Shown here: piece by piece, positions 11,991 through 26,221 of the stretch
Layout of the letters: every line of letters begins with the position of its first letter
How positions within the stretch are numbered: the stretch's first letter is position 1
Origin: Acidobacteriota bacterium
Lineage (GTDB): Bacteria; Acidobacteriota; UBA6911; RPQK01; JADFOI01
Direction: 5' to 3'
DNA: 26,454 nt
Assembly: GCA_036446935.1 (NCBI GenBank)
Contig: JAZFTY010000446.1
Coordinates: forward strand, 1 to 26,454
Translations under genes and position numbers: made by a program
Notes under the pieces: generated by a model
What the model was told of the DNA's origin: nothing
The model's input: only the letters and a program-made list of their open reading frames with translations
The model's database searches: none

Positions 11991-12212
11991 TTAACCCGCA
12001 TTTCTCACACCTGCTCGTCACGAAGCCGGCGGAAGGGCCGGCCTGAGTGCGTTGCGCCACGCGCGACCGAGGCCCCGCAAACGTACTGTAGGGTACGTTG
12101 AGGAGGCCGGGGGCACCCGCTTGCGGGTCGGGGGCACCCGCTTTGCGGGTCGCACAGTCAGGCCGGATCATTACGCCGATGCAGTAGAGGGGGTGTGAGA
12201 AGTGCGGGTTAA
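11991..12212 (+). mobile_element. MITE-like non-autonomous element (element A)
   Basis: Terminal inverted repeats TTAACCCGCATTTCTCACACC (11991-12011) and GGTGTGAGAAGTGCGGGTTAA (12192-12212), 20/21 match, with TTAA on both sides as a possible target duplication. No coding capacity; several internal hairpins. Confidence 0.75.
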
Positions 12213-12308: not shown

Positions 12309-12605
12309 TTACCCGTCATCATCAGACCCACTACCTGGGTCCAGGCCAAGCCCCAACAGGACTTTCTTGCCATCGGACAGATCGCCGATGATCCGTCTGA
12401 TGGGTATGGGCGATGCCTTAATCAGAGTCGGCGTGGCCAGGATTGCATCATCCTCAGCCATTTGTGGGTTCTCCAGAACGTCGATGATTTTCAGGTCGGC
12501 TTCCAATCCCTTGACGATCTGGCGTAAATGGACGATCGCCCGCTGGGTCCTTGACGTCTGCCCTGTGACATAAAGCTTAAGAGAGAGTTTACCCACGCAT
12601 GTCAT
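12309..12605 (-). CDS. kaiB: Circadian clock KaiB-family protein
   Basis: [15 protein letters not shown]...[24 protein letters not shown]...[17 protein letters not shown] closely follows the cyanobacterial KaiB consensus. Confidence 0.93.
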
Positions 12606-12685
12606 TAGCTCATGAATTCAGGACCCAGTCAGTGACAGCTATCACCCAAAACTGATACCACTCATTCGTTCAAGCTCTCCCCTCT

Positions 12686-12869
12686 CTAGCCCGGATGATG
12701 AATAAATTCTTTACTCCAGCGACACCACCTTCATCTGAGCGCAGTGAAGAAATCATCCGGCGTGCTGCACCGCCCGACCCGCAAGCGGGGGGCCCGGCGC
12801 GTCGCAGAACGCCGTCAGGTCGGTGCTTTCGTCGCTTCGTGACCAGTACCTATGCATAGTCCGAGCTAG
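12686..12869 (-). mobile_element. MITE-like non-autonomous element (element B), related to element A and inverted relative to it
   Basis: Flanked by CTAG (12686-12689 and 12866-12869). Imperfect 14-bp TIRs CCCGGATGATGAAT / reverse complement CTCGGACTATGCAT (10/14). Shares internal blocks with element A. Confidence 0.6.
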
Positions 12870-12933
12870 TGATGACCGTCACTGAGTAATCAAGAGAACC
12901 ATGCGAAAGTATCTGGCAAGCCCCCAATAGCGG

Positions 12934-14412
12934 GTGAGCCTTGAGCAGGTGGGGCTAAATCCATCTTTAAAGCTTCTGCAGATGAGAAAGAAAAAACAAC
13001 TCAGTGAGCCTACCTTCCGAAGCATCGCCCCGAGGACTACCGATGGCATCGTGATCGTTGACAAGGACGGGAATGTTCGCTTTGCCAACCCGGCTGCTGA
13101 AGAGCTGTTTGGCCGCCAAGCGGGGCAGCTTTTGGGTGCGCCTTTTGGCCTTCCTCTGGTGAGCGGCGAATCGACGGACATAGACATTCCCCGCGGTGAT
13201 GGGAAACCGGGGATAGCGGAGTTACGCCTGAGTGAAGTCGAGTGGGAAGGCGAAATGGGCTACCTGGCTATGCTGCGCGACCTGACTGAACTGCATGGCC
13301 TTCTGGCTGGTAAGAGGCGGAGAACCGAGGATCTCCGTAGGGCAGATCAAACAAAAGATGACTTCATCGCCAACGTTTCCCATGAACTCCGCACCCCATT
13401 GGCCACGATCTCCAACGTCCTTTCCAATGCCCTGGCCGGTGTTTGGGGTAATCTCAGTCCTGAGGCGAGAGACGGGCTTCTTATCGGTCAGACCAATGCC
13501 AAGCGACTGGGTAACATCGTTAGCAACATGCTGGATGTTTCGACGATTAGAGCCGGGAGGGTTGTTCTGGACAAATCTCTTGTTGACGTCTCTGTGCTCA
13601 TTCGCTCGGTCATCGAATCTTGCCACTCCAAGGCAACTCAGAAGGGGCTCTCCCTCATTTTTGATCAAAAGATCAGGCAAGAAAAACAGGAAGTATTGTG
13701 TGATCCGAACAAAGTGGTTCAAATCCTCACCAATCTCGTAGGGAATGCTCTCAAGTTCACGGACCCCGGAGGCACGATTTTGATAGGGGTCAAAAACGGC
13801 CAAGATGCTCTTCGGATTAGTGTTGCTGACACAGGGGTGGGTATTGCTGAGGAAGAGCTACAGGTTATTTTTGATCGATTCCAACAACTTGACCGCTCCT
13901 ATGGCGGTGGAGAAAAGGGAACCGGCTTAGGTCTGGCGATTACAAAAGAGTTGGTGGAACTTCATAGGGGAAGGATAAGTGTGGAAAGCGAATTGGGCAA
14001 AGGCACCACCTTCACCTTCACACTTCCAAAAGAATGCCGACAACCCGATAACTCCCCTTCTTTTCTTGTTTTCATCCTCAGGATCGCTGATTTTGAGAAG
14101 ATAAAAGAGAGGCTCGGTCCCGACAAGGCTAAGCGGATCGTCACAAAAGTGGCAGAAAGGATAGGCACGGGACTCCGAAGCCAGGATACTGTTTTGACGA
14201 ACGATGACCATGGCAAGATGGCCGTTTTACTTCCTGGCACCCAAGAGAAAGATGCCCCTATCCTCAACAAGAGAATTCTGGAAAAAATCAAGATATTTGA
14301 GAATCATAATCTTTGGTCGATTAGCGTGACTTCGTATCCAGAGCACACTATGGACGCCGAGGGCTTAATGGAGATAGCAGAAAACGCGTTAGCAGAGGAG
14401 GATCATGGCTAA
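12934..14412 (+). CDS. Cytoplasmic PAS sensor histidine kinase with a C-terminal degenerate GGDEF domain
   Basis: PAS (DGIVIVDKDGNVRFANPAAEELFG...LRDLT), H-box SHELRTPL, N-box NLVGNALKFT, DTGVGI, GTGLGLAI, then a GGDEF-fold tail (LRIADFEKIKERLG...LRSQD...AVLLPGT...SVTSYP). No TM segment. Start uncertain (GTG 12934 or ATG 12982). Confidence 0.9.
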   Translation: MSLEQVGLNPSLKLLQMRKKKQLSEPTFRSIAPRTTDGIVIVDKDGNVRFANPAAEELFGRQAGQLLGAPFGLPLVSGESTDIDIPRGDGKPGIAELRLSEVEWEGEMGYLAMLRDLTELHGLLAGKRRRTEDLRRADQTKDDFIANVSHELRTPLATISNVLSNALAGVWGNLSPEARDGLLIGQTNAKRLGNIVSNMLDVSTIRAGRVVLDKSLVDVSVLIRSVIESCHSKATQKGLSLIFDQKIRQEKQEVLCDPNKVVQILTNLVGNALKFTDPGGTILIGVKNGQDALRISVADTGVGIAEEELQVIFDRFQQLDRSYGGGEKGTGLGLAITKELVELHRGRISVESELGKGTTFTFTLPKECRQPDNSPSFLVFILRIADFEKIKERLGPDKAKRIVTKVAERIGTGLRSQDTVLTNDDHGKMAVLLPGTQEKDAPILNKRILEKIKIFENHNLWSISVTSYPEHTMDAEGLMEIAENALAEEDHG

Positions 14413-14788
14413 AAAAATATTTATCGTTGAAGATGAGTTGGATTTTCTTTCTACTCTCAGAGAACGCCTGGAATTTGAGGGTTTTGTGGTAGCCACTGCA
14501 GTCGATGGCGAAGAGGCCTTAAGAAAGATTCCAGAAGAGAAGCCGGACCTTATCTTACTGGATATCATGCTGCCTGAGATGAACGGCTATCAGGTCTGCC
14601 GTGAATTGAAGTCCAACCCCGAGACCAAAACTATACCCGTGGTGGTGGTGACCGCGAAATCTCAGGAGAGTGATAAATTTTGGGCAAAAGAAACCGGAGC
14701 GGATGATTACCTGACCAAGCCCTTCGAGATGGAGGAGCTGCTGCAGAAAATTCAAGACAATCTTCAAGAGGATGAGAAAACCGCCTAA
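14405..14788 (+). CDS. Single-domain response regulator (receiver only)
   Basis: IVEDE, DLILLDIMLPEMNGY, VTAK, DYLTKPF. Overlaps the kinase stop by 8 bp. Confidence 0.95.
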   Translation: MAKKIFIVEDELDFLSTLRERLEFEGFVVATAVDGEEALRKIPEEKPDLILLDIMLPEMNGYQVCRELKSNPETKTIPVVVVTAKSQESDKFWAKETGADDYLTKPFEMEELLQKIQDNLQEDEKTA

Positions 14789-14813
14789 CCCGGATTATGC
14801 ATACTCCGGGTAG
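14785..14813. repeat. Near-perfect palindrome made of two fused element-B-type ends
   Basis: CTAA-CCCGGATTATGCATACTCCGGG-TAG, directly after the receiver stop; a 24-bp palindrome (14788-14811) with one mismatch. Confidence 0.6.
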
Positions 14814-14834
14814 CGCTCAGACAAAAACAGGATA

Positions 14835-17800
14835 GTGACAGAATTCCTTGGTCAGATCATTCCCTTTTTGGGTGGGGCGATCGGTGCCTTAATCCTTCTC
14901 GTCCTGAGTCGTGAAACGGTTCGGTCCCTCAAAAGGCTCCATTGGCGTATAAAGCGGGGGCAATGCCTATCCCTGATTGGGCAGCTGAACGATCTCACGG
15001 TGGACCAATTGTTGCCCCTTGCCGTGGAACTCAAAAAATCCTTTTCACTTCCCCTCGTTGAAAGCGTGTTGGATCAATTCAGATCCCAAGAGCTGAACAC
15101 TCCCGTGCGGCAAAAACTTGCTGCAGTCTACGATCATGTGGGTCTCGTTGAGCATCACCTCAAGACCCTTCACAAAGCCAAGACCTGGCTTGATCGTGCT
15201 AATGCTGCAGAAAAACTGGGCCAAATAGGCCACGTCAAGGCGGTAGTGCCACTCATCCACCTGTTAGAAGATGACAGTGAGGAACGCGAGGTAAAGAGTG
15301 TCGCAACCCAGGCCTTGGGCAAAATCCGCGACGAACGGGCTATTGATCCTCTTATTGAAGTCTTGGGTCTCCCCGGTTCTGCTACGGGCCAACCTGTGGC
15401 CGATGTGCTGGCCCAGTTTGGAGACGCCGTCTTGGAACCTCTGATGAAGGTTCTCTCCACCTCCACCCAGGAGGCCCGACGCTTCTGGGCGGCCCGAATT
15501 TTAGGGGAGTTGCAGACGCACCGGGCCACCCCAACATTACTGAACGCGTTGAGTGATCACTCAACCAAGGTACGCGCGGAAGCGGCCCTGGCTCTGGGGC
15601 GCCTGGGTACGCGCGAGGGAGTATCCCCACTGAGTAGGATGTTGCTAGAAGACCCGGTTCCGCTGGCCAGGGACGCAGCCGCTCAGGCCCTGGGGAAGAT
15701 TGCTGATGATCGGGCTTTGACGGCTCTAAGAGAGGCACTGGCCGATCTCGATCACGATGCCCGGCGGAGTGCAATGCTGGCCTTGGAAAAGATGGGCGAA
15801 ACGGCGACCCCTTTTTTTATTGAGGCACTCCGAGGAGAATCGAAGGAAGCGGCAATCCAGGCGGCGAGCGCCCTGGAGCGTATAGGGATGGTGACGGTCT
15901 GGATAGAGGACCTGGCGGGAGAAAACTCTGAGACTGCCTTTGAGCTGCTCACCTGCATCGCCAAAAATGGTGTTGTGGAGACCTTGGCCCGTTCTCTTAC
16001 CCACCCCCAATTACAGGTACGACTCAGCCTCTGCAACATCTTGTCAGAAGGGAAAAGTTCACGCAGTTTTGAGGCCCTAGCGGAACTCGCCCAAAAGGAT
16101 ACCGAATGGGCGGAGCGCGTGGAGGCCCTTCTGGCCCTCATAAAATTGGCGGATGCTCGATCAGTACCGCTGCTGAGAGATGCCCTCGATGAAAAACAAG
16201 AGACCGTCTCGGAACTCCTGTTACTGGCCTTGCAAGAGTCACCCCGTTCGCTGTTGGAACCGCTAGCAGATACGGTGAGTGTTCTCCTCCAGGACGCGAA
16301 TCTCAACATCCGCGTCCAGGCGATCAGGGTGCTGGCGAAAATACACAGCGAAAGCCTGTTTTCGGTCCTGCTCTCTGCCTTTTCCGATGCCTCTCCGGAA
16401 GTTCGCCAGGAGGCGGCTCTAGCGCTAAAACATTATGCCAACAAGGAAGGGGTTCGGGCACTAACAGGGGCGCTTCAAGACCCCGACCGGGGGGTGCGGG
16501 CCGCTGCCGTGGAGAGTCTCACTCAACTGAAGGATCCAAAGTCCATCCGTCCTCTGGTCCATGCCTTTGAAGGGGCCGATGACGGTTATCGAGACCAGAT
16601 CGCCTCTGCCCTAGCCGCCATGCCCAAACAAGAGTTTCAACAATTGACCGATCTTCTCATGGGGCTCTCACACCCGAAGGCACGGGCTGGGATCACCTTG
16701 ACGTTGGGTTTGATCGGGGATCAGGCGGCGATGCAACTCTTGACCACTTTTTTGAAGGATCCCGAACCGATTGTCCGTGCTTCGGCTGCCAGTGCCCTGG
16801 GACGTTTCGGGAAGGAGGGGATGACTTCGGCCCTGGCGGACTGCCTCTCCGATCCGAAGCGAAGGGTTCGAGCGGCGGTGGTTGATGCACTGGGCAAGAG
16901 TGGGGACGCTGCAATCATCGAGGATCTGTTGCCTCTCCTGGAAAGCGAACCGGACGCTCTTGTCTGTCAACGTGTGGCACTGGCAGTGGGGGCTTTGGTT
17001 GCAGATCAGGGACCAGAAGCGAGAGAGCAGGACCTGGAAAGTAGAAACCTAACGCCCAAGGCCACCGCCGCGGTAACAAAATGGTTCAAGAAGAAAAGAG
17101 GTGTAAAGAATCAAGCGGCGGGATGGGTTGCGCTTGCCCTCTTGGAAGAGGAATCTTACTTTCCGGAGATTTTGAAGGCGAGCCAGGATGCCCCGCTGCG
17201 TGCTGCCATGCAGGAATGTTTGAAGCAGCTCTCCAGCGCCGTGCAGGATCATTTCTTTACCTTTCTCTCTCTGGATTCACGTCTCTTTTGGCGTGATGAC
17301 GTTGAAAAGAGCGTTGAGCATTACACTCGCCTTTTGCAAGCAAGCCGTGAGACACGCGACCGTGTGCATGCCGTAGAGGCTTTAAGCACGTTGGCGGGAA
17401 AAACGGCTATTCCTGTAATCGAGTCCGCCTGTGCCACCGATCCCAGCCCCCGGGTCCGGGCTGCTGCCTTATCTACCCTGGGCCGGCTTCTGGAGGGGGA
17501 ACCGTTAGTTGCCAGAATTACTCAGGCCGCACAGGATCCATCCGATAGGGTTCGCTCTCAGGTTATACCCACGCTAGACCGTTTGAGCCCCAAAGAACTG
17601 GAAGGGGCGCGGAAGCAGTTGATCCCATTGCTGGATAGCTCCCAAGAGGAGATTCGCAGGCCAGTTGCCGATCTGCTTGCCCGTCTTTACTATCATGATT
17701 GGCAGCTCCTGGCGGATCAATTATTGGGGGCGGAGAAAGAACCCCGCATCCTCGGCCTGATTGAAACGTTGGGAAAGATCAGTCATTCCCAGATATCACC

Positions 17801-18533
17801 TCTCCTCGTTCAATTCATGAAACATAGTGATGCCGAGGTGCGAGGGGCCAGTGCCCAGGCCGCGGCCCAATCGGGAGCGTTGGCAAAACAGGAATGGATT
17901 CCCTGTCTGGATGACTCCCAGGAGGCCGTCCGCCTGGCAGCCATTCAGGGCTTGGGAAAACAGTTGGACGGTGAGGTGTTGGAGATCTTCTCCCAGCACC
18001 TGCAAGACCCTTCCCCCCAAGTCCGTGGCCAGATAGCTACTCTCCTGGGAAAAAAGAAGCTTACCGGCAACGAGCAGCCAACAAAACTCCTGGAGCGTTT
18101 AAGCCACGATGTGAATCTTGGAGTCGGCATAATCAGTCTGGTATCCCTCCATCGCCTGGGGGTAAGGGGCCTCGCCCAGGAGATAGCGGCAAGTATGCTG
18201 AACCTTGAAGGGCAGGAGCGCTCAGCCCTTTTGGAGCACTTGCAAAAAGAAGGGGTATTTGTGGAATTGCTGGGCTCGGTCCAACGCGACCGTGATCCCG
18301 AAGCTCGCAAAGAGGCCCTTCAGTTTTTATCCGTGCTGGATCTTTCTCAATTTACGGGAGAAATTGCCAAAGCCTTGTCCGACCCTTCCAGCCAAGTGAG
18401 GGTTGCTGCCATCGAAGCCCTTGGTCAGGTCAGTGATCCTCTTCTTGAAAAGCAAATAGAGGCCCTGAGTCAAGATCCTGTTAAGGAAGTGAGATCTGCC
18501 GTCAAACACCGGAAGCTCCGTAGGGTGCAATAG
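14835..18533 (+). CDS. Large HEAT-repeat (PBS-lyase-like) protein with an N-terminal membrane anchor
   Basis: Hydrophobic [17 protein letters not shown] followed by basic residues, then more than 20 repeats of the L-x-D-x-x-x-x-VR-x-x-A-x-x-ALG type along 1232 aa. Confidence 0.9.
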
Positions 18534-18568
18534 ATCCTCGAATTTGCCGGCGTGTAGGACACCGAATC

Positions 18569-20053
18569 ATGATATTCATCCATATCTGGGAAACCACAGC
18601 GATTCTCTTTTTCGTCACCTATAACTCGATCAATTTCTTCCTCATCACGGTGGCATGGATCAAGATACGCTTTTTTCTGCAGCTCAAATCCATCTTAAGT
18701 TTTAACGATGTTTACCGGTCACTCTCGACACCGAAAATTTCTCTTTTAGTCCCTGCCTTCAATGAACAATATACGATCGTGGAGAGTATCCGCGCTCTGG
18801 TTGCACTTCGGTATCCCTCTTTTGAGATCGTGATCGTCAATGATGGCTCAACCGACAAGACGGTAGAAGTGTTGACGGATGCCTTCGGTTTCGTGCGCCG
18901 AGACATCGGCTATCATGAAACCCTCGCCACAGCTCGCATCCGGGGTTTTTATGAAGCGAAGAGCCCGGAAGGGACCCCCATCCAACGACTCATTCTCATA
19001 GATAAGGAAAACGGAGGGAAGGCGGACTCCCTGAATGCTGCCCTGAATGCGGCCCTCTCCCGCTATGTCTGTTGTATGGATGCCGACTCGATTATCGATC
19101 CGGAGGCTCTTCTGCAAGTCATGCAGCCGATCGTAGAAGACCCTGAGGGCATCGTCGCCTGCGGAGGACAAATCGGGATCGCCAATGGCTGCAAGATTCA
19201 GAATGGACAAGTGGTCAAGGCCGCGCTCCCTCGGAACTGGCTGGCGATGTTTCAGGTAGTGGAATATATGCGATCCTTTACCGCCAGTCGGACAGGATTG
19301 GCTGCGCTGAACTCGCTGGTGATCCTCTCCGGTGTGTTTGCCGTCTTTCGGCGGGATCTGGTGTTAGATGTCGGGGGGTTCTTAAGCGGTCGGTCCAACC
19401 GTAAGATTGCCCTCGAATACTGTGGCAACAGAGAGACCGTCTGTGAGGATATGGAGATCATTGTCCGTCTCCAGCGTTATTTGATTGAAAAGAAGATCCC
19501 GGGCCGCATCATCTTTCTCCCCTATCCAACAGCCTGGTCGCAAGCCCCGGAAAAGATTAGTCATTTCGGCAAACAGCGCAGTCGTTGGTATCGGGGACTA
19601 GCCCAGGTGCTCTTTTATCACAGGAAGATGCTCTTCAATCCGCGCTATAAGCAGATTGGTCTCTTTGCCCTTCCCTACCAGTTCGTCTACGAGTTCTTAG
19701 GCCCGCTTGTGGAAATGGCTGGATATATCAGCTTGCCAGTTCTCTATTTTCTGGGTTTGCTCGGAACCGATGTCCTGCTTCTCTTTCTTACAGTCTCGAT
19801 CCTCTATGGGATGTTCCTCTCCGTTTATGCTGTCTTGCTGGGGTTTTGGACCGAAGGACGCCTGGCAGAAGAAAAGAAGGTTACGATGTTGTATCAATAT
19901 CGCGGGGTGTGGACTGTTGCAAAACTCATCGTTTTTGCGATGCTCTCTATGTTGGGCTACCGACAGCTCCAACTCGCCTATCAGATCAAAGGATTTGTTG
20001 ACTTCCTCAGAGGGAGTCAAGCATGGGGGGAGTTTCAACGTGAACGATTCTAG
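18569..20053 (+). CDS. Processive family-2 glycosyltransferase (PgaC/IcaA-like polysaccharide synthase)
   Basis: N-terminal TM; [28 protein letters not shown] (DxD), CEDME (catalytic base), KQRSRW (QxxRW); C-terminal TM helices. Confidence 0.92.
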
Positions 20054-20067
20054 CCCGGATGATGCAT
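20050..20067 (+). repeat. Isolated element-B-type end at the GT2 stop codon
   Basis: CTAGCCCGGATGATGCAT; the 16-mer TCTAGCCCGGATGATG (20049-20064) is identical to 12685-12700. Confidence 0.6.
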
Positions 20068-20069
20068 CG

Positions 20070-20213
20070 ATGATCGGCAAAGGGCTGTTGGGATTATGGA
20101 ATCATGCAATCATGGCGGCGATCATAGCAGTGGTCGGTCTGCTCAGTGTGCTGACCGCCCTCAGAAAGATGAGGCGGCATATAGGACAGAATGCCGGAGG
20201 GTGCGACACTTGA
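20070..20213 (+). CDS. Putative small single-pass membrane protein (47 aa), not called in the ORF track
   Basis: MIGKGLLGLWNHAIMAAIIAVVGLLSVLTALRKMRRHIGQNAGGCDT*. One clear TM helix followed by RKMRR. Fills the GT2-to-hydrolase gap, and its TGA overlaps the next TTG start. Alternative start at ATG 20112. Confidence 0.5.
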   Translation: MIGKGLLGLWNHAIMAAIIAVVGLLSVLTALRKMRRHIGQNAGGCDT

Positions 20214-22105
20214 AGTGGATTATCTGGCTTCTGACAAATGTTTTCTGTTTACTGAGTTCATCCCTCTACTCACAATCGTTATCCAACATCTTCCCTTCCC
20301 AGGAGATTTCACTAGCCGACTGGGGACTCACTGATCCCTCAGAAATCGAGTATATCTCGGTGGGAATTCTGCATAAAAGGGAGGGAGATGACCTGCGTCT
20401 CTACGACATTCGCAAACGAAGACCCGTGGTGAAGGAGCCCACTGGACCGCGAGGGCGGACCCCTTTATTTGAAGGAAACCTTTTTCTGGTCAGTCACTTT
20501 TCGGAGGGAAACACCAACCGGTTGGGCGGTTATTTCAACGGTTTTGCCAAATCTCCATCCCAGTCGGAAGTGACTATCGGCAAGGCCCCAGAGGGTAAGC
20601 CGTCCCTGATTTTTTCCTATAGGAAAGTGCTTCCCAGCTTCGCTGGTTTCTGGATCCATCTGTTTGACTTCAAAAAACACCCTGCCACCCGGGTTTTCTT
20701 CGATGCCAGCCCCTTTACCTACCTGACTTTTTCCATTCGTGGGGAACGAGGAGGTGAAGAGTTACAGCTGCAAATAGCCGATCGAGCATGGGAAACACAA
20801 GAAGATTCCCTTGTTGTAGGAGATGTGGCTTCTTTTCTTCCTGATGGGAAGGTGAAAAAGAAGTGGCAGCAAGGATGGATTGCTCTCAAAGAATTGCCAG
20901 CCGGTCTGAACAAGAAGGAATTGGCAAGCCTCGTCTTCCTGGTCAAAAGAAACGGTCAAGGGCGGGTTTTTGTCAGAGACCTTGCCTTCACAACGAAAAG
21001 GGATGTCCAGATTCCCCAACCCAAAGAGGAAAGAATTCCCGCGCGTCCCTTAAACAAAGCGATGTGGCTCTGGGAGACGGACAAGATTGTGACCAACCCG
21101 GACGAGCAGCAGCGACTCCTCACTTTCTGCAAAGAAGAAGGGATCACGGATCTCTTTTTGCAAATACCGTACAAGGCGAAGGAAGAGAAGGGACGGTGGG
21201 AAATCCTTTGGAACCCATTACTCATTCGCCCCCTCATTTCCCAGTTGCATCAGGTAGGCGTCAAGATTCACGCCCTCGATGGCGACCCACGATTTGCCCT
21301 GCGAGAGTGGCATGGACGGGTCATCGCAACCCTTGCAAGCATCATCCAATATAATCGAGAAAGCCCCCCTCAAGAACGCTTCGACGGGATTCGCTTCGAC
21401 ATTGAGCCCTACCTTTTGCCAAGTTTTGGTGGTGTCCAAAAGGAAGCTATCTTGAAGCAGTATCTTTCCCTATTGGTGGCTTCGCAGACCCTAGCCAGGC
21501 AAGCTAATCTGGCCTTTGGTGTCGACATCCCTTTTTGGTTTGATGCACGGAATGAGTTTTTTGAACCGACAGCGGAGGTGGGGGGGCGCCCCGTGAGCGA
21601 ATTAATTATCGATATCGTAGACAATGTGGGGATCATGGACTACCGGACGCAGGCCTACGGTGCCGATGGGGTGATCGCCCAGGGCACCCAAGAGCTCCTC
21701 TATGCAGCACAGCAAGGGAAAGAGGTTTTCCTGGGATTAGAAACGGTGGAACTGCCGGATGAGACGATCTTGGCTTTCGGCCCCGCATCCCAACGTGGTT
21801 CGCGGATTCTGATAGAGAGAATTGAGGGTAAAAAAGTTCGCCTCTATTGGATTCCAGACGGTCAATGGGAAAAGGTCCAAAGAGACCACCCGTTTTCTTC
21901 TCCGGTTGTGGTCCTGGGGCAAACCCAGGCCACTTTCGTACCCTCTGGCAAGTTGACTTTCTTCAATAAGGACTTGCAAGACCTGGAAAACGTGATCCAG
22001 CAGGCGGGATCGGCATTACGGCGATTTTCCAGTTTCTCTGGATTCACGATCCATTCCTATGAAAGCTATCGACCTTGGCTCGAGAGACACAGGGGGAAAG
22101 ATTGA
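20210..22105 (+). CDS. Secreted protein with a CBM-like beta-sandwich and a glycoside-hydrolase-like TIM barrel
   Basis: TTG 20210 is preceded by GGAGG (20196-20200) and gives a signal peptide (MKWIIWLLTNVFCLLSSSLYS-Q). CBM11/CIA30-like segment (AGFWIHL...LTFSIRG...LQIAD...VFVRDLAF); barrel motifs AMWLW, LFLQIP, HALDGDP, FDGIRFDIEPY, VDIPFWFD, IMDYR, LGLET, IHSY. Confidence 0.75.
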   Translation: MKWIIWLLTNVFCLLSSSLYSQSLSNIFPSQEISLADWGLTDPSEIEYISVGILHKREGDDLRLYDIRKRRPVVKEPTGPRGRTPLFEGNLFLVSHFSEGNTNRLGGYFNGFAKSPSQSEVTIGKAPEGKPSLIFSYRKVLPSFAGFWIHLFDFKKHPATRVFFDASPFTYLTFSIRGERGGEELQLQIADRAWETQEDSLVVGDVASFLPDGKVKKKWQQGWIALKELPAGLNKKELASLVFLVKRNGQGRVFVRDLAFTTKRDVQIPQPKEERIPARPLNKAMWLWETDKIVTNPDEQQRLLTFCKEEGITDLFLQIPYKAKEEKGRWEILWNPLLIRPLISQLHQVGVKIHALDGDPRFALREWHGRVIATLASIIQYNRESPPQERFDGIRFDIEPYLLPSFGGVQKEAILKQYLSLLVASQTLARQANLAFGVDIPFWFDARNEFFEPTAEVGGRPVSELIIDIVDNVGIMDYRTQAYGADGVIAQGTQELLYAAQQGKEVFLGLETVELPDETILAFGPASQRGSRILIERIEGKKVRLYWIPDGQWEKVQRDHPFSSPVVVLGQTQATFVPSGKLTFFNKDLQDLENVIQQAGSALRRFSSFSGFTIHSYESYRPWLERHRGKD

Positions 22106-22114
22106 AGAGGAGAT

Positions 22115-23869
22115 TTACTCTCGTATCGTCAGGCCGATACCGAAAGTGTTCTGACTGTTACCGTCGGAGCGCCCCTGGTAGCTGTAATGAAGGCCGACTG
22201 AGTAGGCCGGCGTCAGCTTGAAATCCACACCACCAAAATAGGTGTTGGCCACAAACTGCCCGATCCGATCGACCGACAGAGGGGAAAAACTCTCGCTGCC
22301 GTGTGCAAAGCCGACATTCACAAGCATCGGTTGGGTGATTTGCTGATAGTAATGAAGCATGAACGCTTCGTTACTGTCCACGACTCCAGAGGGTTGGAAC
22401 TTCGTCCAACTTTTGTAGAACACGGCTCGAACCCAAGCCGGCCTCTCGAAGTAGTACTCGAACAATGGGGCAAGGACATGAGCCTGATCCGCTTCAAAGC
22501 GCAGGTAACGGTAATCGGCTCCCACCGCCATGCCTCGCGGAAGGGCTCTGGAAAAACCCGCCGTGTAGTCTTGTGCTGCGAGCACCGTCGCTCCCGGGGC
22601 CAACATTGCATAGCCGCGCAGCCAGAAACGGTCCGCAAGTTGCCGACTGAAGCTCAACCCACCACGATTGATCTTCTCGTCAAACCCGTTCCATCGCTCG
22701 TAGTGTCCAGAGACCCGGCCGCGGTCGCCGACATACCCCACGCTCACGTACCCCTTGCTGGCAGGAGATGCGATTGAGGATCCTTCCTGTCCCCAGCCGA
22801 GCCGGACCTCCAGCGATCGAGGCAGGATGATTTGCGACTTCAGTTCTCTGGCTTCGCTGCTTTCCGGGGCAACCGTAAACACCCTCTCGATCTGCTCCAG
22901 GGCTTCTCTGTTGCGTCCCTGATACTGGTAGTATCTGGCCAGTGCCAGTAACACATCCGTGCGTTCAGGTGTCATTAGCTGGGCCTGTGAGAGAAACTCA
23001 TGAGCCGCCTGAAATTCCTGCTGCCACATCAGCACGTAGGCTTTTCCGACCAGAGCGTCAACGTTTCGCGGTTCACGGGCCAGGGCACGGTCGTAGAACC
23101 GCGTGGCCGTAGCATAGTCGTTCAGCCATGACGAGAGTCTGCCTATCCACAGCAGATAGTTGAGGCTCGCCGGATTCTGCTCCGAAAGTTGTATGTAGAG
23201 TTGGCGGGCCTCCCCAAAGTTCTTGGTGTCCACCGCCTCTCCCGCAGCCTTCTCTAGTTTCGCGGCCAAGGGCGATAGGGTGATTTGCGACTTCAGTTCT
23301 CTGCCATCGCTGTTTTCCGGATCAACGGTAAACAGCCTCTCGATCTGCTCCAGAGCTTCTGTGGTGCGTCCCTGATAATAGTAGTATCTGGCCAGTGCCA
23401 GCAGCAGATCCGTGCGTTCGGGTATCCTTAGCTGGGCCTGTGAGAGGAGCTCATGGGCCCCCTGAAACTCCTGCTGCCACATCAGCACATAAGCTTTTCC
23501 GACCAGAGCGTCAGCGTTTTGCGGTTCCCGGGCCAGGGCGCGGTCGTAGAACCGCGTGGCCGTGGGGTAATCGTTCAGCCAGGCCGAGAGTCTGCCTATC
23601 CACAGTAGATAGTTGAGGCTGGCCGGATTCTGCTCCGAAAGGTGTATGTAGAGTTCGCGGGCCTCCCAGAAGTTCTGGGTGTCCACGGCCTCTCGAGCAG
23701 CGCTCTCTAAATCCGCGGCCAGGAGCAATCCACCCAAAAACACGGCCAGAATACCACCAGACAACCATACTCTCGCCACCGCAGTCTTTCGAAAGCCTCC
23801 ATGACCTCGATGCAAACTTTCTCTCGTATCCTGCATTTCTGGGTGTGTGGAATGCACGGGATGTGCCAT
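22115..23869 (-). CDS. TPR-repeat protein with a C-terminal YaiO-like outer-membrane beta-barrel (PgaA/NfrA-like export protein)
   Basis: Signal-like VWLSGGILAVFLGGLLLAA, a duplicated TPR block, and alternating amphipathic strands ending NTFGIGLTIRE. Start reassigned to ATG 23869 (or 23836) because the extension to 24052 reads through an AT-rich promoter region. Confidence 0.8.
   Translation of the reverse strand: MAHPVHSTHPEMQDTRESLHRGHGGFRKTAVARVWLSGGILAVFLGGLLLAADLESAAREAVDTQNFWEARELYIHLSEQNPASLNYLLWIGRLSAWLNDYPTATRFYDRALAREPQNADALVGKAYVLMWQQEFQGAHELLSQAQLRIPERTDLLLALARYYYYQGRTTEALEQIERLFTVDPENSDGRELKSQITLSPLAAKLEKAAGEAVDTKNFGEARQLYIQLSEQNPASLNYLLWIGRLSSWLNDYATATRFYDRALAREPRNVDALVGKAYVLMWQQEFQAAHEFLSQAQLMTPERTDVLLALARYYQYQGRNREALEQIERVFTVAPESSEARELKSQIILPRSLEVRLGWGQEGSSIASPASKGYVSVGYVGDRGRVSGHYERWNGFDEKINRGGLSFSRQLADRFWLRGYAMLAPGATVLAAQDYTAGFSRALPRGMAVGADYRYLRFEADQAHVLAPLFEYYFERPAWVRAVFYKSWTKFQPSGVVDSNEAFMLHYYQQITQPMLVNVGFAHGSESFSPLSVDRIGQFVANTYFGGVDFKLTPAYSVGLHYSYQGRSDGNSQNTFGIGLTIRE
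22829..23720 (-). repeat. Intragenic tandem duplication, period 453 bp (151 codons)
   Basis: 22829-23267 aligns with 23282-23720 (for example GATTTGCGACTTCAGTTCTCTG at 22829 and 23282). About 24 amino-acid differences over about 145 residues by manual count. Confidence 0.9.
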
Positions 23870-24208: not shown

Positions 24209-26221
24209 ATGCATCTGGATACGCAGCTTGTAGCTGCCCTTCTAGTCTTCGGCCTGATCGCCCTTGCTTCCCGCCAGATCGGAACCTTCTTTACCCGCAT
24301 TCACTTTCCACTGGTGACGGGATTCCTGCTCACCGGCATCCTAGCGGGCCCCCAGTTCTTGCAAGTCGTCAGCACCGGATCTCTGGCAAGAGTGCACTTT
24401 CTTGACCAGATTGCTTTGGGATTCATTGGGTTTGCCGCGGGAGCCCATCTCTACTTGCCTGAATTCAAGAGCCGTTTTCGCACCATCCGCTGGGTGACGC
24501 TGGGGCTGGTGGTGTCCACCTACACACTGTCGACCCTGGCTGTCTATCTGCTGGCCGGTGCGATTCCTTTCATGGCAACGCTGCCGGCACCGGCACGTCT
24601 CGGCATAGCTCTGATGGCAGCCGCGATTATGGTGGCCCGTTCACCTTCGTCGGCCATAGCCGTCATCAATGAACTGCGAGCGAGCGGGCCCTTCACGCGC
24701 ATGGTGCTGGGAGTGACGGTCACCATGGACGTGGTCGTCATCATCCTCTTTACCATCAGTTCCTCGATCGCTGATGCACTCCTGGGCCAGTTGGGCCTCC
24801 AGTTTAGCCTGGTCCTTTTGGTTGTGGCAGAGATTGTCATGGCTGCAGGTCTGGGAGTGATTTTGGGAAAAATCATCGCCCTCCTTTCACCCATCCCGCT
24901 AAACGGTGTCCTAAAGGGCATTCTGCTGCTGGCCTGCAACTACCTGGTCTTTCCTTTTTCTTCCTTCCTGCATCACTTGTCCCGCGACTCGTGGGAAGTG
25001 GAAATATTCTTAGAGCCCCTCCTGGTGTGCATGGTGGCGGGATTCGTGGTGACCAATTTCAGCGCGAGCCGCACCGAGTTTCAGCGGCTCGTCGATCTCG
25101 TTGGTCCGACCGTCTACATCACCTTCTTTACTTTGGTCGGTGCATCGCTAGCCTTTGACACGCTCTTACAGACCTGGCACATCGCCCTGCTCCTTTTCTC
25201 CGTCCGCCTGCTCGGCATCTTTATGGGTTCGGTGGTCGGCGGCATGGCGGCTGGAGACCCTTGGAGGCTTAACCGCATCAGCTGGATGACCTTCGTGACC
25301 CAGGCTGGAATCGGGCTGGGACTGGCACGTGAGGTGGCCGTGGAGTTCCCCGAGTGGGGAGAGGCCTTTGCAGCCATGATGATCGCAGTGATCATCCTCA
25401 ACCAACTGGTGGGACCACCGCTCTTCAAGTGGGCCCTTCACATGGCCGGTGAATCACACGTGAGGGCCGGCCGTCGCGATCTTCGCGGCCTACCCGTCGC
25501 CTTCATTTTTGGTTTGGAGGGCCAGTCTTTGGCACTGGCCCGGCAGCTCAATGCCCACGGCTGGGTGGTCCATGTGCTCACCCTGAAATCAGAGCCGATC
25601 GAGGAGGTTCCAGAGCGGGGGATCGAGATCGTCCCCATGCTGGATCTGAGCCCCGCTTCTCTGGAGAAAATAGGAGCAGGAAAGGCTCAGGCTAGTGTGG
25701 CCTTGATGCGGGACGAGGAAAAGCTTGAGATCTGTCAGGCCGCCTACGAGCGATTCGGGACACAGTGCGTGATCGTGCGATCCCATGACCGCTCTTATTG
25801 GGAGCGCTACAGGGCTCTGGGAGCGACCATTCTTGACCCCGGTCTGGCCATGGTGAACCTACTCGACCATTTCGTCCGCTCGCCGGCGGCGGCGGCACTA
25901 CTCCTGGGCATGGAAACAGGACAAGACGTCGTCGAGTTGGTCGTCTCCAATCCCAACCTGCAAGGCACAGCCCTCAGGGACCTGCAACTTCCGGGGGATA
26001 CGCTGGTCCTCAGCGTGTTTAGAAACCGCGCCTCACTCATCTGCCACGGCTACACACGCCTGCATGTGGGAGACCACATCACCATCGTCGGTTCCGAATC
26101 CTCCCTGGAAGAAATCCAACTCAGATTTTCTGACTACGTGGGTCTTGAGCCCGAGCAAAACATACAGAGAGACTCCCGCGATACGTCACCCTCGAAAGCA
26201 CCCAAGTACTCCCTCTCATAA
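24209..26221 (+). CDS. Cation:proton antiporter (CPA2/Kef-like) with C-terminal RCK_N and RCK_C (TrkA-type) domains
   Basis: About 12 TM helices, GFLLTGILAGP, ARSPSSAIAVINE, TMD, QAGIGLGLA; the soluble tail resembles TrkA-N/TrkA-C (LRDLQLPGDTLVLSVFR...LHVGDHITIVG). Confidence 0.88.
   Translation: MHLDTQLVAALLVFGLIALASRQIGTFFTRIHFPLVTGFLLTGILAGPQFLQVVSTGSLARVHFLDQIALGFIGFAAGAHLYLPEFKSRFRTIRWVTLGLVVSTYTLSTLAVYLLAGAIPFMATLPAPARLGIALMAAAIMVARSPSSAIAVINELRASGPFTRMVLGVTVTMDVVVIILFTISSSIADALLGQLGLQFSLVLLVVAEIVMAAGLGVILGKIIALLSPIPLNGVLKGILLLACNYLVFPFSSFLHHLSRDSWEVEIFLEPLLVCMVAGFVVTNFSASRTEFQRLVDLVGPTVYITFFTLVGASLAFDTLLQTWHIALLLFSVRLLGIFMGSVVGGMAAGDPWRLNRISWMTFVTQAGIGLGLAREVAVEFPEWGEAFAAMMIAVIILNQLVGPPLFKWALHMAGESHVRAGRRDLRGLPVAFIFGLEGQSLALARQLNAHGWVVHVLTLKSEPIEEVPERGIEIVPMLDLSPASLEKIGAGKAQASVALMRDEEKLEICQAAYERFGTQCVIVRSHDRSYWERYRALGATILDPGLAMVNLLDHFVRSPAAAALLLGMETGQDVVELVVSNPNLQGTALRDLQLPGDTLVLSVFRNRASLICHGYTRLHVGDHITIVGSESSLEEIQLRFSDYVGLEPEQNIQRDSRDTSPSKAPKYSLS

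Follow-up and report, generated by a model that had tools for sequence, protein, structure and literature searches.

A candidate polysaccharide synthesis and export locus that pairs a PgaC-like synthase gene with a HEAT-repeat gene in an Acidobacteriota bacterium

We analyzed a 26,454-nucleotide stretch of Acidobacteriota DNA (GenBank assembly GCA_036446935.1, contig JAZFTY010000446.1; hereafter the window). It is contig C446 of a 2.76-Mb genome (G000; 567 contigs, 89% complete), whose nearest named relatives are 'Acidobacteria bacterium AH-259-L09' and 'AH-259-A15'. Positions 12,309 to 23,869 hold a locus that encodes a KaiB protein, a sensor kinase, a single-domain response regulator (receiver), a HEAT-repeat protein, a family 2 glycosyltransferase (GT2), a secreted glycoside hydrolase-like (GH-like) protein, and a tetratricopeptide repeat (TPR) protein with an outer-membrane β-barrel. 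Our analyses point, with a probability of about 0.7, to an undescribed type of synthase-dependent polysaccharide synthesis and export system. The locus would then be a trimmed copy of a widespread and apparently unstudied sugar-polymer export machine. The full-text literature that we searched contained no account of a GT2 synthase with a HEAT partner or of exopolysaccharide control linked to KaiBC, although such absence is not proof.

Relatives of the synthase were found in 196 species-representative genomes from about nine phyla (Acidobacteriota, Desulfobacterota, Gemmatimonadota, Myxococcota, Nitrospirota, Elusimicrobiota, and others), and identity within the family is 60-75% across phyla. 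We called open reading frames (ORFs) in the 80 best synthase loci and queried them with the proteins of the window. A HEAT gene (~1210-1230 aa) was present within 8 kb of the synthase in 62 of these 80 loci and without exception shared its strand, lying upstream of it in 25 and downstream in 37. When only the 40 loci with at least 5 kb on both sides were counted (the full-flank loci), 35 had the HEAT gene, 34 the receiver, 24 the kinase, 24 the TPR/YaiO gene, and 8 the GH-like gene. The receiver was directly upstream of the HEAT gene in every locus that carried both (45/45), with a gap of 3-168 nt between the matches. Two gene orders recurred: kinase-receiver-HEAT-GT2 in the window's clade, Gemmatimonadota, Nitrospirota, and Elusimicrobiota, and GT2-kinase-receiver-HEAT in Myxococcota and some Acidobacteriota. 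In Gemmatimonadota, the genes for the GH-like protein and the barrel come immediately after the GT2 gene, the same short form as in the window. Because the arrangement recurs across phyla, it is far beyond chance.

An earlier sequence-only reading of the window had proposed a synthase-dependent system in which a HEAT scaffold and a phosphorelay replace PilZ- or PelD-type control, with KaiB as a possible modulator. The co-localization of kinase, receiver, HEAT, GT2, GH-like, and barrel genes in several phyla, the check that this reading had named for itself, bears out the proposal for these components, and kaiB drops out of it, since it was found in 0 of the 80 loci. Phylogenetic analysis of the GT2 sequences placed the window with Desulfobacterales and Aminicenantes, sister to Gemmatimonadota, and the other Acidobacteriota within a Myxococcota clade. 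Within the genus, the cassette was found in two of the seven genomes searched, that of the window and a congener (G006). The tree placement and the patchy distribution together indicate horizontal spread. A conserved pair of proteins, one of ~441 aa (no family) and one of ~590 aa, accompanies the cassette in relatives (L099:16645-19742; L105:2524-5618). The larger member is a lipoprotein with weak similarity to CE4 deacetylases and with THDND ... GSHTVIH motifs; no CE4-like gene was found in the window's genome.

Genes were called from an ORF listing and from Pfam and NCBIfam scans of the window's proteins (Table 1). All ORFs of the kinase-receiver-HEAT-GT2-secreted run described earlier are present, as is the convergent TPR and barrel gene, whose stop codon lies 9 bp from that of the secreted protein. 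The receiver ORF overlaps the kinase ORF by 8 nt, and the ORF of the secreted protein has a TTG start with GGAGG 10 nt upstream. We compared the window's genome with the congener G006 (~11% nucleotide difference) using the ratio of nonsynonymous to synonymous substitution rates (dN/dS). All genes of the system are under purifying selection between the two genomes, with the lowest values for the synthase and the receiver.

Table 1 Features of the locus in window coordinates, with dN/dS measured against the congener G006.
Feature	Position	Strand	Remarks
Miniature inverted-repeat transposable element-like (MITE-like) element	11991..12212		between mqnA-like gene and kaiB; 26-nt inverted ends, 88% complementary arms, 170 nt apart
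Orphan kaiB	12309..12605	-	Pfam KaiB E 3.6e-22; ortholog of L098 kaiB, inverted; dN/dS 0.33
MITE-like repeat end CTAGCCCGGATGATG	12686..12700	+	exact 15-mer, ~180 bp upstream of 12867
PAS-HisKA-HATPase kinase	12934..14412	+	Pfam; cytoplasmic; degenerate GGDEF-like tail ~14035-14400; dN/dS 0.28
Single-domain response regulator	14405..14788	+	Response_reg E 7.4e-33; dN/dS 0.10
HEAT-repeat protein, 1232 aa	14835..18533	+	HEAT_2 E 7.5e-110; transmembrane helix at 3-29; dN/dS 0.20
PgaC-like processive GT2, 494 aa	18569..20053	+	D, DxD, ED, QRxRW motifs; dN/dS 0.10
Second CTAGCCCGGATGATG repeat end	20050..20064	+	at 3.6-kb deletion junction
Symporter 3'-end relic, 47 codons	20070..20213	+	matches symporter C-terminus in L098, L013, L099
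Secreted protein, 631 aa	20210..22105	+	signal peptide, CBM11/30-like sandwich, GH-like (β/α)8 barrel; dN/dS 0.23
TPR + YaiO-type barrel	22115..23869	-	longest ORF to 24052; TPR families + TIGR04390; dN/dS 0.27
453-bp tandem duplication in TPR region	22824..23721		Tandem Repeats Finder: period 453, 2.0 copies, 88% match

The synthase has the motifs and the flanking transmembrane (TM) segments (10-31 and 380-428) of processive GT2 synthases such as BcsA, PgaC, NodC, and the hyaluronan and chitin synthases. In an alignment of 14 homologues from several phyla, D92, D171xD173, E293-D294 (in CEDME), and Q336RxRW340 were invariant. Comparison with hhalign matched it to E. coli PgaC at a probability of 99.7% (E 1e-25, 34% identity over 238 GT-domain columns), which groups it with the processive PgaC and not with non-processive transferases, in line with the sequence-only reading. 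A search of the PDB with the synthase profile returned matches to N-terminal GT-A domains only, plus weak ones to BcsA and hyaluronan synthase. In the NCBIfam scan, the protein fell under the cut-off of every curated synthase family, with 111.7 bits against 422.3 for the PgaC/IcaA equivalog (TIGR03937) and 44 bits against 699 for the cellulose synthase model TIGR03030. The protein also matches Chitin_synth_2. Profile comparison with PgaC marked two inserts, at ~106-132 and 271-290, as specific to this family. The synthase is a PgaC homologue, yet one that lies outside the PgaC/IcaA family by score. A second synthase paralogue, 42% identical, is encoded on a separate contig of the congener (G006:C242:4627-5793).

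The HEAT protein has one N-terminal TM helix with basic residues after it, and the bulk of the protein is therefore predicted to be cytoplasmic. Residues 120-360 are its best-conserved part among 21 homologues. We predicted the complex of the GT2 with HEAT residues 1-500. The prediction scored 0.61 (median of three runs) and the best of three controls 0.00, a score that is the model's own confidence and was built on our own alignments. In the calibration of this score, the pass mark was reached by 58 of 80 solved complexes and by 2 of 110 mismatched pairs. The HEAT TM helix (1-38) is predicted to pack against GT2 helices 401-458, and HEAT repeats 119-413 to contact GT2 residues 38-54, 109-127, and 189-192. 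This interface fits two independent observations, as GT2 109-127 falls within an insert absent from PgaC and HEAT 120-360 is the conservation peak. The model supports, but does not prove, binding between the synthase and the HEAT protein.

The receiver has the canonical D10, D53, T83, and K105 and scored 81.6 bits against an EpsW cut-off of 200. We also considered a phycobilisome-lyase or NblB-type role for the HEAT protein and rejected it, because the NCBIfam matches were far under their cut-offs and covered HEAT repeats only, and because the organism, judged from its nearest named relatives, is a non-phototroph. In one Desulfobacterales relative (L022 / L105 6240-9907), the HEAT gene is split into ORFs of 432 and 762 aa. 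The break lies on the N-terminal side of the linker that is least conserved (~721-750 in the window's protein), and either a frameshift or a natural split may account for it.

Structure prediction of the secreted protein (mean predicted local distance difference test score 84.5, from a 16-sequence alignment) revealed a signal peptide, a small N-terminal unit, a sandwich similar to carbohydrate-binding modules (CBMs) of the CBM11/CBM30 type, and a (β/α)8 barrel. The sandwich matched CBM11 (1v0a) with Z 16.4. The barrel matched Clostridioides difficile Cwp19 best (Z 20.6), and other matches were to the GH153 domains of BpsB (Z 17.8) and PgaB (Z 16.7), GH5 mannanases, and GH18 chitinases (~17). 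D397xE399 is invariant in the alignment and in the model sits at the end of strand 393-396. This may be the site of the catalytic pair of GH18; hydrolases of the GH18, GH153, and GHL10 types carry their catalytic acid(s) at the end of barrel strand 4. The barrel domain drew no match in sequence to Pfam or CAZy-type families, and its Atlas family is annotated 'hypothetical'. The model agrees with the earlier description of a GH-like secreted protein, and we read it as a putative member of an unclassified GH-like family.

The TPR and barrel protein scored 46.1 bits against the cut-off of 32 for YaiO (TIGR04390). It stayed below the cut-offs of PF19413 (19.9 against 23.9 bits) and of PgaA (TIGR03939; 62.7 against 366.65 bits, TPR part only). 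The duplication within the porin gene gives two near-identical blocks of ~150 aa and appears to have lengthened the periplasmic TPR arm in frame in the recent past. Synthase, TPR and barrel protein, and a predicted periplasmic polymer-active enzyme are thus encoded in one locus, the combination by which synthase-dependent systems are recognized.

We propose that the GT2 acts as an inner-membrane, PgaC-like processive synthase-translocase. The HEAT protein would be its obligate partner, with the TM helix packing on the C-terminal TM bundle in the position of PgaD/IcaD and the first HEAT array clasping the cytoplasmic GT domain at the family-specific insert. The cytoplasmic PAS kinase would phosphorylate the lone receiver, which most likely docks on the HEAT protein and would switch the synthase post-translationally, so that phosphorylation may take the role that c-di-GMP (cyclic diguanylate) has in Pga, Bcs, Pel, and Alg. 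A precedent exists in Myxococcus xanthus, where a polysaccharide enzyme is switched after translation by a single-domain receiver (EpsW-EpsZ; PMC12802240). The periplasmic CBM and TIM-barrel protein would trim or clear the polymer, and we infer that the TPR and YaiO barrel protein carries it across the outer membrane.

The sequence-only reading had also wired the locus to c-di-GMP. Control of this kind could run through the GGDEF-like tail of the kinase, with c-di-GMP binding at an RxxD site gating kinase output. The tail matches the GGDEF family in Pfam (37.8 bits, cut-off 23.8), and kinases of both Gemmatimonadota and the window's GT2 clade conserve this fold at their C-termini. The window, G006, L098, L099, and L035 all have RxxD, which is kept within the window's GT2 clade (this genus, AH-259-L09, a 76% metagenome relative, and Desulfobacterales). 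However, the active-site motif reads DDHGK in the window and GDGRM, NHGKM, or TPGRI in relatives, which is not the GG(D/E)EF motif of an active diguanylate cyclase. All five Gemmatimonadota kinases have RxxxD-type strings in place of RxxD, and the Myxococcota kinases match in the core only (~query residues 120-380) and not in the tail. Pfam and NCBIfam scans of the locus genes found no PilZ, MshEN, GIL, or PelD-type c-di-GMP receptor. A c-di-GMP link is possible yet unsupported; it comes down to a catalytically dead tail whose RxxD is not universal, and we consider such control unlikely.

The history of the window's copy can be followed by comparison with contig L098 of the sister genome AH-259-L09. 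Its genes run on one strand in the order kaiB, kaiC, REC-PAS-kinase-GGDEF, receiver, HEAT, GT2, TPR, GH3, symporter, and GH-like. The kaiB-kaiC pair lies directly upstream of a 647-aa REC-PAS-HisKA-HATPase-GGDEF kinase (L098:200-4072), KaiC is full-length (726 bits, cut-off 408), and KaiB scores 112 bits (cut-off 110). Genes additional to the window's are those for a 315-aa TPR protein, a NagZ-type GH3, and a sodium:solute symporter. BLASTN aligned the two loci collinearly at ~84% from the kinase to the GT2 and then at the GH-like gene, and the 3.6-kb block with the TPR, GH3, and symporter genes is gone from the window exactly after the GT2 stop. At the other end, kaiB is inverted, and kaiC and the first 144 kinase codons (the REC domain) are missing, such that the window kinase aligns to residues 145-647 of its sister. 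Identity to the sister proteins is 81-87% for HEAT and GT2 (87% for GT2) and 60% for KaiB. G006 has the same rearranged layout, and the events are therefore older than the split of both genomes.

One small TM ORF downstream of the synthase, which the sequence-only reading had counted among the parts of the system, is a relic of the deleted symporter gene and not a gene. It aligns to the last TM helix and C-terminus of the symporter (L098, L013, L099), and in G006 it has ATT instead of ATG and an 11-bp deletion; dN/dS over the partial match was 0.59. We rejected it as a PgaD/IcaD analogue because of this alignment and the lost start codon and deletion in the congener. As it is the sole small TM ORF, no PgaD/IcaD counterpart is found downstream of the synthase.

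Dispersed repeats mark these rearrangements. The 15-mer CTAGCCCGGATGATG had three hits in the window against 0.04 expected and 64 in the 2.76-Mb genome (at most one mismatch) against 0 for the reversed control, often as inverted pairs spaced by 150-800 bp, and represents the end of a dispersed MITE-like family. Copies are located at the junction of the 3.6-kb deletion and in the unmatched interval between kaiB and the kinase gene, where the match to G006 resumes at 12867, and a variant is at the receiver stop (14785-14799). The 222-bp element beyond kaiB contains an internal tandem GC-rich hairpin motif, and a related inverted core lies on the other side of kaiB (12773-12795).

KaiB had been suggested as a modulator of the system. 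It could be a working one, binding the kinase or the receiver without KaiC and timing polymer synthesis. The sister genome speaks for this, with kaiB and kaiC directly upstream, on the same strand, of the REC-bearing kinase ortholog. Within the genus, kaiB was found only in the two cassette-bearing genomes and has therefore arrived or persisted with the cassette, and the gene is intact, with its dN/dS value (Table 1) coming from only 25 substitutions. However, KaiB acts through KaiC. No KaiC was found in the window's genome, which is 89% complete (KaiC protein query; PF06745 at best 30 bits, to a generic P-loop protein), or in the six congeners searched, and so no KaiABC or KaiBC timer was recognized. 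The REC domain, the likely docking site, is deleted. The window's KaiB has diverged further from its sister than HEAT and GT2 and scores 91 bits, below the KaiB equivalog cut-off of 110. A metagenome scan with the L098 kinase for further kaiBC-kinase-HEAT loci gave generic kinases only (at most 38% identity).

We consider a working KaiB modulator quite unlikely, and kaiB is rejected as a conserved component given its absence from the surveyed loci. Its presence is lineage-specific. We conclude that the Kai link was real in the ancestor of a small clade, was not system-wide, and has decayed here; kaiB is what is left of a KaiBC input. It seems similarly doubtful that a KaiBC timer was once wired to exopolysaccharide synthesis through the REC-PAS kinase, receiver, HEAT protein, and synthase and that the orphan KaiB might still act. 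The kaiBC-kinase-cassette of L098 qualifies as a candidate for a KaiBC output pathway outside the cyanobacteria.

The polymer itself has roughly even odds of being a β-linked N-acetylhexosamine, similar to poly-N-acetylglucosamine (PNAG) or to chitin. This assignment draws on the PgaC homology, the Chitin_synth_2 match, the GH18/GH153-like barrel, the GH3 and symporter genes, and the CE4-like proteins of relatives. The GH3 of the sister operons is of the NagZ type (254.6 bits, cut-off 207) and without a signal peptide, thus cytoplasmic, and is encoded alongside the symporter. The lost TPR protein, GH3, and symporter probably formed a recycling branch.

Several observations weigh against an export system as we propose it. 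Nearly all relatives of the locus come from metagenome-assembled genomes, and the complex score has the limits given above. The HEAT gene next to the synthase is missing in 5 of the 40 full-flank loci at the threshold used, and the GH-like (8/40) and TPR/YaiO (24/40) genes are part of the family only in some loci. The GT2-HEAT product could accordingly stay unexported, as a periplasmic or cell-wall glycan, a glycolipid, or a protein glycan, with the barrel and GH-like proteins unrelated to it. This is very unlikely in our view, as QRxRW and the PgaC homology mark processive synthase-translocases, as the barrel and GH-like genes, where present, overlap or abut the operon in several phyla, and as the parts list agrees with Pga, Bcs, and Nfr (PMC8461298, PMC8669469). 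Sequence similarity between the secreted protein and PgaB was not found either, and the likeness is in the fold only.

Other points against concern the window's own copy, which is without the GH3, symporter, small TPR, and CE4 genes of relatives. Its barrel ends in ...GLTIRE (22115-22135). A C-terminal aromatic residue is the usual recognition signal of the β-barrel assembly machinery (BAM), and the homologues end in aromatic residues (...YRW, ...YLF). Such features, along with the two MITE-associated rearrangements, the gene relic, and the patchy occurrence in the genus, could describe a decaying remnant that no longer makes or exports a polymer and is heading to a pseudogene. Against this, all seven ORFs are intact in both congeners despite their nucleotide divergence, and dN/dS of the system genes stays at 0.10-0.28. 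Moreover, Gemmatimonadota share the short form with GT2, GH-like protein, and barrel, which is therefore a normal functional layout. We give a dying locus little credence and regard the window's copy of the export system as reduced but maintained.

The genes upstream of the locus encode a pseudouridine synthase, Lgt, EF-G, an M28 peptidase, a metallo-β-lactamase (MBL)-fold protein, topoisomerase I, DprA, and an MqnA-like protein, and are ordinary housekeeping genes. Directly downstream (24209-26221), a 670-aa fusion of a CPA2-type cation/proton antiporter with TrkA-N and TrkA-C appears unrelated to the cassette.

To our knowledge, the synthase-dependent systems (cellulose, PNAG, Pel, alginate, and Nfr) are the best-understood matrix machines and are all switched by c-di-GMP. 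The cassette would add a new family to them, with a cytoplasmic HEAT solenoid of 1,200 residues as the membrane-anchored partner of the synthase, and a second principle, control by a direct phosphorelay via a lone receiver. The bacteria that carry the cassette are almost all uncultured ones of soil, sediment, and marine habitats, where matrix polymers shape aggregation and carbon turnover. The system should be tractable, since three to five genes could be expressed heterologously and the predicted interface mutated. For KaiBC timers outside cyanobacteria, whose outputs are mostly obscure, the kaiBC link of the sister genome provides a concrete output that can be tested. If true, a non-phototroph would time its matrix synthesis by day and night or by metabolic state, with post-translational action on the synthase. 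New points of the present analysis are the GH-like fold, the predicted interface, the recognition of the small ORF as a relic, the kaiBC ancestry, and the MITE-marked deletions.

KaiBC timers have the kinase outputs SasA and CikA in cyanobacteria. The sister locus resembles such timers in that KaiC and KaiB are encoded directly upstream of a REC-PAS-kinase, and differs in that the presumed output is a polysaccharide synthase cassette and not a transcription factor; the window itself differs further through the losses and the inversion described above. Operons of kaiBC do occur outside cyanobacteria (PMC5520375). The EpsW-EpsZ pair shares with the proposed mechanism the activation of a polysaccharide enzyme through protein contact with a phosphorylated single-domain receiver, which is presumed here (PMC12802240). 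In contrast to the locus, that pair belongs to a Wzx/Wzy-dependent pathway and targets a phosphoglycosyl transferase, whereas here the system would be synthase-dependent and the presumed target the HEAT-synthase complex.

The likeness of the parts list to Pga, Bcs, and Nfr, noted in the sequence-only reading, holds, but Nfr is not the closest relative. The Nfr system of E. coli (NfrB-NfrA-YbcH; PMC8669469) combines, as here, an inner-membrane GT2 with DxD, TED, and QxxRW, a TPR and barrel protein, and a periplasmic auxiliary in one operon. We rejected it as the nearest system because the synthase matches NfrB over 64 N-terminal columns only (hhalign 56%) and the barrel protein matches NfrA at the TPR level only (E 0.02); the locus synthase also has no MshEN and ends after the TM bundle. 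Bcs (BcsA-BcsB-BcsZ-BcsC) follows the same plan, with a processive GT2 as synthase-translocase, a glycoside hydrolase in the periplasm, and a porin made of TPR and barrel, whereas the locus is without PilZ and BcsB, and its predicted synthase partner is cytoplasmic, unlike the periplasmic BcsB.

The nearest known system is Pga. Its control is post-translational, through the synthase's membrane partner PgaD with c-di-GMP (PMC8461298). The locus differs from it in having a 1232-aa HEAT protein instead of PgaD, a kinase and receiver where Pga has c-di-GMP, a barrel of the YaiO type, a synthase with two family-specific inserts, and a GH-like protein that carries a CBM11/30-like module and is unlike PgaB in sequence. 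Nevertheless, the synthase is a clear PgaC homologue by profile, the outer-membrane protein combines TPR and barrel as in PgaA, and the periplasmic TIM barrel resembles GH153 structurally, with a CE4-like lipoprotein added in relatives of the locus. In both systems, control would pass through the membrane partner of the synthase, as proposed here for the HEAT protein.

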